This document shows, piece after piece, positions 9,689-10,534 of a stretch of 42,979 nucleotides of DNA. The translations under genes were made by a program, and so were the position numbers. Each line of letters starts with the position of its first letter. The stretch's first letter is position 1. Origin of the DNA: Escherichia coli (GTDB lineage: Bacteria > Pseudomonadota > Gammaproteobacteria > Enterobacterales > Enterobacteriaceae); the NCBI RefSeq assembly GCF_003334815.1, contig NZ_QOWO01000032.1. One strand, written 5' to 3'. The notes beneath the pieces are model-generated. The model worked only from the letters and a program-made list of their open reading frames with translations. It had not been told where the DNA came from and ran no database searches.

Positions 9689-10320
9689 CATGACTCCTTG
9701 CTCATCGCATGAAGACTCCGAGAGTGAACCCCGTTAGAAAGGGTCACACGCATGCCCCAATAGAAATTTGTTTGAACACTTTCATCATACCATGTGAATG
9801 CACACAAAAACGGCGTAAAGAAAGGTTGCAAACATGTTAATAAAAACTCAAATTGATCCCACGTATATATTACGCCGCAAAATCCTTACAATAAACAGGT
9901 TTTTGTTGAAGCAAATTTGCATTTTTCGACGGTGATCAATTTATAGCTAAATTACCGCCTTTCAGCCAATTTGATCGAGAACAATTTATCTCTTTTTGAT
10001 GCCCATTTCCAAGACTTATACATTGATAAATATCAATTCCTACAAATTATGTTAATCATGTTTCAATAAGGTAACTTTAGTGACATTTATGTTTAAAATG
10101 TGTGAGTTATAAGGCTGAAATTAGTTTCGGTTGGCAATTAAAGATAAAAAGAGACGAAGCAAAAACAGCACGGTTGACCTTAATTCTTTTTTTGGTCACT
10201 GGCTAATACGACGCAGAGTTTCAGGATTACTAATAAAGGCATAAATCCACCCCGCCAATATTAACATTTAGTTAACTTATAATTATATTATAATTAACTC
10301 ACCCAGGGTTATTATTTTGT

Positions 10321-10346
10321 TAAAAATAAAGCCACATATACGTGGC
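10321..10346 (-). terminator. Candidate intrinsic terminator downstream of mngB
   Basis: Hairpin agccac-atatac-gtggct; on the minus strand followed by UUUAUUUUUAAC. Confidence 0.4.
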
Positions 10347-10373
10347 TTGAGAGTGAAGATAAACGCAAAATTA

Positions 10374-10472
10374 CCTGATGCGCTACGCTTGCCAGTGTCT
10401 ACATCATCTCTGCAATATATTGAATTTGCCTGCTTTTGTAGACCGAATAAAGCGTTCATGCCGTATCCGGCA
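10374..10472. repeat. RIP/BIME-type element: two inverted REP-like sequences flanking an IHF-like core
   Basis: cctgatgcgctacgc... and ...tgtagaccgaataaagcgttcatgccgtatccggca flank tgcaatatattgaatttgc; the same central motif recurs at 40216..40248. Confidence 0.6.
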
Positions 10473-10534
10473 TGAACAAAGCGCCCTTTGTCAACAATCT
10501 GGCCGCGCATATGTGGCTTCGGTTTGATTGCTAT

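Follow-up and report, generated by a model that had tools for sequence, protein, structure and literature searches.

The palindrome upstream of cydA in Escherichia coli is the core of the published ArcA site cydA1 and probably the middle of an extended distal module

The mngB-cydA spacer and its features

The window, meaning the whole 42,979-nucleotide stretch of DNA that was analysed, is K-12-type E. coli DNA, and its spacer between mngB and cydA is identical to MG1655 770612..771457. Cytochrome bd-I serves E. coli respiration at very low oxygen, and the control of its genes by ArcA, FNR, and H-NS is a textbook case. Gene calls in the window and the spacer between them were as follows.

8120..9688, minus strand: cydA
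9689..10534, minus strand: mngB-cydA spacer, which is the cydAB control region; 846 bp, non-coding
10535..13168, minus strand: mngB
13186..15162, minus strand: mngA

Between positions 9800 and 10400 the GC content is 0.29-0.36, versus about 0.5 in the flanking genes, in keeping with the initial annotation, which had described about 850 bp of AT-rich non-coding DNA before cydA. The same annotation had called this region unusually long; it is long, but 600-900 bp upstream of cydA is the rule across the Enterobacterales, with either sucD or mngB as the upstream gene. In published work the cydA spacer was given as 847 bp and carried several peaks of RNA polymerase as well as a mark of H-NS (PMC3946193), and five promoters are known in the control region (PMC3946193; PMC3037301). 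The promoter names cydAp1-5 were sought in full texts and gave no match. One published data set of transcription start sites (TSS) places a single cydA start at window position 9860, and from the cydA start in this data set published version 2 (v2) coordinates were converted as window = 780369 - v2 coordinate.

Motif matching identified three FNR-type sites in the cydA-proximal half of the spacer.

10023..10036, unstranded: FNR-type site, perfect consensus TTGATAAATATCAA
9971..9984, unstranded: FNR-type site with one mismatch
9926..9939, unstranded: FNR-type site with two mismatches

Several TTGAT-type half-sites had been noticed previously, and the count bears this out: the spacer holds five TTGAT and two ATCAA, compared with about three expected. 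The FNR-like full sites number three. A published FNR ChIP peak (v2 770404) converts to approximately window 9965, among the FNR-type sites, and the FNR site is given at -53.5. Taking this position together with the perfect FNR site, which is centred at 10029.5, promoter P1 would lie at approximately window 9976, and the palindrome described below would then be about 300 bp upstream of it.

The mngB-proximal part of the spacer contains a terminator, a repetitive element, and an open reading frame (ORF).

10329..10348, minus strand: mngAB intrinsic terminator stem-loop (predicted), 8 pairs (4 G-C) and a 4-nt loop, with a T-tract at 10319..10328
about 10372..10482, minus strand: RIP/BIME-1 element, made of a REP hairpin, an IHF-consensus motif, and a degenerate REP
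10453..10478, minus strand: perfect REP hairpin of 11 pairs, found by folding
10413..10425, minus strand: IHF-consensus match, ATTCAATATATTG against WATCAANNNNTTR (12/13), the central motif of the RIP element
about 10374..10404, minus strand: degenerate second REP within the RIP element
10487..10519, minus strand: decayed second copy of the terminator segment 10316..10348, with 24/33 matches
10283..10510, minus strand: 75-aa ORF spanning the RIP repeat, the terminator, and half of the palindrome

The terminator is predicted from a G+C-containing stem-loop that is followed by a T-run and lies downstream of a stop codon. Its tail on the mngB strand is TATTTTTAAC, and its local fold has z = -3.0. 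In other species, too, an equivalent hairpin and T-run follow mngB or sucD at the corresponding relative position. It had earlier been placed at 10321..10346, which is close to the stem at 10329..10348.

The RIP element folds as a whole at -38.9 kcal/mol (z = -3.5). It had been reported at 10374..10472; the element is real, but its limits are somewhat wider (about 10372..10482). A 121-nt stretch of it was found in at least 18-49 places per E. coli genome among the matches listed, with a median of at least 40, and each of 5426 complete E. coli genomes has a copy in which 80% or more of the query is covered. The two copies of the terminator segment bracket the element, and the 24 matches between them compare with a maximum of 23 in 200 shuffles. 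A scan of positions 8000..12000 against Rfam gave nothing above threshold, and the sole match (ES036, within the RIP element, E = 0.58) is attributable to chance.

The 75-aa ORF had been described as the only one in the spacer and as looking non-coding. It is the sole ORF of at least 60 aa, but four shorter ones (43-52 aa) are also present. Some RefSeq genomes list it as encoding a hypothetical protein. Comparison with NCBIfam gave no family match at E values up to 1, and the frame is accounted for by one half of the palindrome together with the terminator and the RIP repeat; the non-coding reading is upheld, and the ORF is probably not a gene.

The palindrome and the published ArcA site cydA1

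The palindrome and the ArcA-type sites of the spacer are listed below, with scores in bits from the ArcA matrix.

10270..10299, unstranded: palindrome AGTTAAcTTATAAT-tat-ATTATAATTAACT, with 13 complementary pairs, one bulged C, and a 3-nt loop
10258..10288, minus strand: ArcA site 'cydA1', the exact reverse complement of the site in Table S4 of Park et al. 2013
10261..10278, minus strand: 18-bp ArcA box AAGTTAACTAAATGTTAA, 20.0 bits, holding the left arm of the palindrome
10291..10300, minus strand: extra ArcA-type direct repeat GAGTTAATTA, 7.3 bits, in the right arm of the palindrome
10306..10326, plus strand: ArcA box in the opposite orientation, GGGTTATTATTTTGTTAA, 15.9 bits (10306..10323), with direct repeats starting at 10306 and 10317
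10058..10109, plus strand: published five-repeat ArcA site 'cydA2', matrix matches of 12.8, 10.4, and 12.3 bits
9813..9843, plus strand: published ArcA site 'cydA3', matrix match of 14.8 bits at 9823..9840

The palindrome had been placed at 10271..10300; it is real, and the better bounds are 10270..10299, with 13 pairs and the bulge. It is the top inverted repeat of the spacer, and about 1% of dinucleotide shuffles give one that is as good or better. Folded as single-stranded DNA it gives a weak hairpin of -5.4 kcal/mol, and a cruciform or stable hairpin was rejected on this basis. A search of full texts for the sequence of the palindrome found no paper in which the palindrome itself is given as a site.

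The initial annotation could not assign the palindrome to a known site, and this part of it has to be revised. Reverse-complemented, positions 10258..10288 give exactly the published sequence of cydA1, ATATAATTATAAGTTAACTAAATGTTAATAT. Park et al. (2013) reported three ArcA ChIP-seq regions upstream of cydA (PMC3798270, Tables S2-S4), and the enrichment at cydA1 was the highest of the three (8.6, versus 6 and 3.4; PMC3798270). Occupancy of cydA1 by ArcA in vivo is documented by both ChIP-seq and ChIP-chip in that study (PMC3798270). The palindrome is thus the core of an ArcA site that has already been published, in ordinary and well-studied regulatory DNA.

Scoring was performed with an ArcA matrix constructed from 112 boxes of Table S3 of Park et al., with the three cydA boxes left out. 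The best match of the whole 43-kb window, on both strands, was 10261..10278 (20.0 bits), and all other matches above 14.7 bits fell within the spacer or within the sdhC-gltA region, which is another known ArcA target. The box consists of two TGTTAA-type repeats whose centres are 11 bp apart, and its score is above the 9 bits that define an ArcA box. A match of 19.9 bits was reached in 0.2% of 1000 shuffles of the spacer. The spacer holds five ArcA boxes of at least 12 bits, and 0 of 1000 shuffles reached five.

Beyond the 18-bp box, GAGTTAATTA lies exactly 22 bp upstream of it in the direction of cydA. Read in that direction, the layout is GAGTTAA, a 15-bp AT-rich spacer TTATAATATAATTAT, and then AAGTTAAC-TAAA-TGTTAA, so that three GTTAA direct repeats stand at 0, 22, and 33 bp on the same face of the helix, with scores of 7.3, 8.3, and 11.9 bits. 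The box in the opposite orientation is located about 10 bp further upstream of these repeats and overlaps the T-tract of the mngAB terminator; its two repeats score 5.0 and 13.2 bits with the single-repeat matrix. The centre of the cydA1 ChIP-seq peak converts to approximately window 10314 (PMC3798270), offset by 15-25 bp from the palindrome in the direction of mngB. This position fits the extended module, with individual repeats below the resolution of the peak, and it suggests that the opposite-strand box at 10306..10323 may be occupied.

Conservation and variation of the distal site

The cydA loci of 80 Enterobacterales species were compared. Homology to the K-12-type spacer fades beyond approximately 10060-10113 in these loci, and in a BLAST search with 10062..10534 the other E. 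coli alleles and the 80 Enterobacterales loci could hardly be aligned past about 10113. Deep allelic divergence among E. coli was also observed at the locus upstream of cydA. A global alignment of the distal spacer was weakly above shuffles. Homology of the distal site became visible once the loci were anchored on matches to the ArcA matrix: many genera and other E. coli alleles have ArcA boxes whose distances to the ATG of cydA are about 145, 400-412, and 555-612 bp. A sense-oriented box of at least 12 bits occurs 520-660 bp from the ATG in 42 of 84 loci, and in Enterobacter, Kluyvera, Lelliottia, Citrobacter amalonaticus, and others the distal box lies at about 576-588 bp.

The repeat in the right arm of the palindrome is part of this conserved arrangement. 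In 24 Enterobacteriaceae loci (from Citrobacter, Enterobacter, Lelliottia, Kluyvera, Kosakonia, Phytobacter, Cedecea, Mixta, and others), (G/T)TGTTAA is found 21-23 bp upstream of the distal box, and the mean single-repeat score over the 42 loci has a sharp peak at offset -22. The sequence ATAATnAC, an ArcA repeat on the other strand, is common 7-8 bp upstream of the distal repeat; in K-12 it falls within the box at 10306..10323, and the arrangement of the opposite-strand box is also seen in C. amalonaticus. Both the putative 22-bp repeat and the candidate opposite-strand box, which go beyond the published annotation of cydA1, are proposed from matrix scans and conservation; the former is a small refinement and no new kind of site. 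In the same 24 loci, the 15 bp between the repeats carry almost no information content, and the region has no symmetry in the other species.

The AT-rich DNA between the palindrome's repeats could be an RNA polymerase site inside the ArcA site. It has TATAAT on both strands, and it might act as a far-upstream cydA promoter or as a promoter antisense to mngB, occluded by phosphorylated ArcA (ArcA-P). This idea is compatible with ArcA binding, and we regard it as unlikely. On the plus strand, TTAACA-17-TATATT at 10261..10289 agrees with a promoter at 10 of 12 positions; its -35 element, which is the ArcA repeat itself, and its spacer are overlain by the ArcA box. Nevertheless, the three promoter-like matches in the region equal the shuffle expectation (2.8). 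In the direction of cydA there are tandem hexamers TATAAT, TATAAT, and TATAAG, but the -35 candidates for them are poor, no consistent -10 hexamer is found in other species, where the spacer is unconserved, and the TSS data set cited above has its single cydA start at window 9860. Published genomic SELEX peaks for the holoenzymes of RpoD (v2 770038, about window 10331) and RpoS (v2 770146, about window 10223, intensity 127.5) flank the palindrome, although the resolution of SELEX-chip is about 100 bp and a SELEX peak was assigned by its authors to TCTACA-17-TATATT in the RIP element, at 10414..10442 (PMC3946193). ArcA sites with 22-bp spacing often hold another site or a second promoter (Park et al., PMC3798270), which speaks for the idea.

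Within E. coli, exact matches to selected segments of the spacer were counted in about 3170 K-12-type genomes. The 81 nt at 10250..10330 were matched exactly in 43.5% of these genomes, whereas three other 81-nt segments of the spacer were matched exactly in 97.5-97.9%. Among eleven sampled sequences, eight variable sites were found, all within the 50 nt of 10253..10302, and none in the other 270 nt sampled. The segment 10250..10330 is thus a hot spot of single-nucleotide polymorphisms (SNPs), and two independent IS1 insertions no more than 16 bp apart were also recorded at the locus. The GTTAA cores were intact in all sampled haplotypes, and the ArcA box of the variant haplotypes is estimated from the matrix at about 18-19.4 bits. 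In nine of the ten variant haplotypes sampled, GTTAAC is replaced by GTTAAT, and in one the inner arm is altered; each of these changes weakens the palindrome. Judged from these 9 of 10 variants, GTTAAT appears to be present in about half of the K-12-type genomes. The C that follows GTTAA in K-12 is probably derived, as the outgroups mostly have T or A at this position.

Two other readings of the symmetry were weighed against these data. In favour of an operator for some dimeric regulator that recognizes dyad symmetry, the palindrome is the top inverted repeat of the spacer, with about 1% of shuffles equalling it. Orthologous regions, however, lack the symmetry and conserve just the cores of the direct repeats, GTTAAT seems to be carried by about half of the K-12-type genomes, the inner arm is changed in one haplotype, and the full-text search for the sequence found no paper that names it as a site; such an operator is highly unlikely. 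The symmetry may instead have no protein-binding role of its own and mark an AT-rich quasi-palindrome that is a hot spot for mutation or insertion, by template switching or as an IS1 target, a reading that we consider quite unlikely and that is compatible with the ArcA explanation. The drop in exact matches to 43.5% in 10250..10330, the clustering of the eight variable sites in 50 nt, the probably derived state of the K-12 C that extends the palindrome, and the proximity of the two IS1 insertions are all in its favour. On the other hand, the majority of the SNPs fall at 10253-10268, next to the palindrome towards cydA and not within it, the hairpin is weak at -5.4 kcal/mol, and the haplotypes may amount to long-standing markers of lineages or a short tract of conversion.

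The preferred reading is that the palindrome is the middle of a distal ArcA-P binding module of the cydAB control region and that its symmetry is an incidental by-product of phased direct repeats; we consider this likely. Because GTTAAC is self-complementary, copies of GTTAA in direct orientation can equally be read as inverted, and the palindromic look is completed because the K-12-type spacer TTATAATATAATTAT is by chance nearly symmetric as well. The dyad symmetry exceeds that of about 99% of shuffles, and pure coincidence is therefore not a comfortable explanation. The repeats are conserved, the spacer between them is not, and the SNPs break the symmetry; the palindrome is therefore taken to be incidental to the ArcA repeats. 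There is a slim chance that the K-12-type palindromic spacer is more than a by-product, either as a mutation or insertion hot spot or as an embedded promoter occluded by ArcA; if so, lineages of E. coli could differ heritably in the low-oxygen response of cydAB.

Proposed function and comparison with known systems

The likely function of the distal site, on the present analysis, is the binding of ArcA-P against silencing by H-NS. When oxygen becomes limiting, ArcA-P would bind cooperatively across approximately 50-70 bp, as at the footprinted sites with 22-bp spacing, probably as two or more dimers. The distal module and the two downstream ArcA sites could then displace or block H-NS filaments on the AT-rich DNA, and the loss of H-NS would de-repress the oxygen-regulated cydAB promoters, roughly 100-300 bp downstream. 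In the published model, ArcA activates cydAB mainly via disruption of H-NS repression.

Recognition of the palindrome as the published cydA1 removes an apparent orphan element, and the element itself is already known. What is added is a conserved repeat at 22 bp, an ArcA box on the opposite strand, and three ArcA sites at fixed distances across the Enterobacteriaceae. These additions refine the reading of the long cydAB control region and leave the overall picture unchanged.

The RIP element resembles other RIP/BIME-1 elements in having two inverted REPs around an IHF-consensus motif, in its location between a stop codon and a terminator, and in being multicopy. It differs from a typical element in that one REP is degenerate and that the terminator segment stands on both sides of it as an imperfect direct repeat of 33 nt.

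The closest known system is cydA1 as described by Park, Kiley et al. (2013, PLoS Genet 9:e1003839), which is the same DNA; the 18-bp box was given 19.8 bits there and 20.0 bits here. The published site consists of three repeats at 10-bp spacing, including a weak repeat of 2.4 bits, and ends at the centre of the palindrome, whereas conservation in the 24 loci points to a repeat 22 bp upstream and to the opposite-strand box. The ArcA classes represented by trxC, phoH, and paaA are alike in combining a box with a repeat two helical turns away and an unconserved spacer, and in published footprints of the 22-bp class 48-60 bp are covered and the spacer shows a hypersensitive site (PMC3798270). Unlike these, the cydA site stands well upstream, at about 290-320 bp from the position proposed for P1, and belongs to an operon that is activated and not repressed. 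ArcA sites of the dctA and acnB type are similar in that a second box lies on the opposite strand at a distance of some tens of base pairs, and at dctA the ArcA protection extends across the gap between the boxes (PMC3798270).

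The cydA upstream region across Enterobacterales and within E. coli

A spacer of 600-900 bp was found upstream of cydA across Enterobacterales, irrespective of whether sucD or mngB was the preceding gene (cydA loci from 80 species, L006-L085). In the 500-900 bp upstream regions of the same loci, the ArcA boxes of Enterobacteriaceae were constant in both their distance from cydA and their orientation, as follows.

~145 bp upstream of cydA, antisense, ArcA box
400-412 bp upstream of cydA, antisense, ArcA box
~555-612 bp upstream of cydA, sense, ArcA box

The E. coli sucD-cydA interval was observed to be hypervariable (window 9760-16100; loci L003, L004, and L005). 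The K-12 arrangement, which bears mngRAB, was present in 3172 of 5426 E. coli genomes; O157:H7 carries a methylaspartate mutase cluster between sucD and cydA, B2 strains a TPR-repeat protein, and further E. coli a TPR gene together with a diverged mngB. Upstream of ~9760, the cydA control region of the K-12 type shared ~81% identity with that of other E. coli alleles, a divergence equal to that from Citrobacter, unlike the cydA gene itself, which was almost identical across the E. coli alleles.

Sequence variation and IS1 insertions at the distal ArcA site

The 81-nt segment 10250-10330 was matched exactly in just 1380 of the 3172 K-12-type genomes, compared with 97.5-97.9% for three other 81-nt stretches of the mngB-cydA spacer. 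A SNP hot spot was observed at window 10253-10302; among 11 sampled sequences, eight variable sites fell within these 50 nt and none within the remaining 270 nt, and the SNPs left the ArcA site's GTTAA cores intact.

Separately, IS1 was observed to have inserted twice, independently and no more than 16 bp apart, adjoining or within the distal ArcA module (ArcA box 10261-10278, a further ArcA-type direct repeat 22 bp upstream, and an opposite-strand ArcA box at 10306-10326).

10311-10319, IS1 in strain LR-31, with a 9-bp target duplication ATTATTTTG, within the opposite-strand ArcA box
10303/10304, IS1 junction in O111:NM strain 2010C-3053, 4-5 bp from the palindrome (inverted repeat 10270-10299)

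Cra-type repeat and RNA polymerase signals

The sequence GCTGAAATTAGTTTCGG (window 10114-10130) may be an imperfect inverted repeat of the Cra (FruR) type. When published genomic SELEX peaks were mapped onto the window, the palindrome was located between a very strong RpoS-holoenzyme peak at ~10223 (intensity 127.5) and an RpoD-holoenzyme peak at ~10331. The RpoD signal was ascribed by the authors to TCTACA-17-TATATT (PMC3946193), which is located at 10414-10442, within the RIP element. Going by its citation in PMC3946193, a further paper has Cra-FNR interplay at cydAB as its topic.

The 75-aa ORF and the repeat flanking the RIP element

One ORF of this region is annotated in a subset of RefSeq genomes and is unannotated in MG1655.

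10283-10510, minus strand, 75-aa hypothetical protein WP_001324497.1

Since it consists of stretches of the RIP element, the terminator, and the palindrome, and an NCBIfam search gave no family match, this ORF is probably an annotation artefact. The RIP element is flanked on both sides by copies of an imperfect 33-nt direct repeat, which agree at 24 of 33 positions, more than in any of 200 shuffles.

10316-10348, repeat copy constituting the working terminator
10487-10519, decayed repeat copy directly past the mngB stop codon

This bracketing by two copies suggests that the RIP element came in along with a duplication of its target, because in Enterobacter cloacae mngB likewise adjoins cydA, but with a single terminator and without a RIP element.
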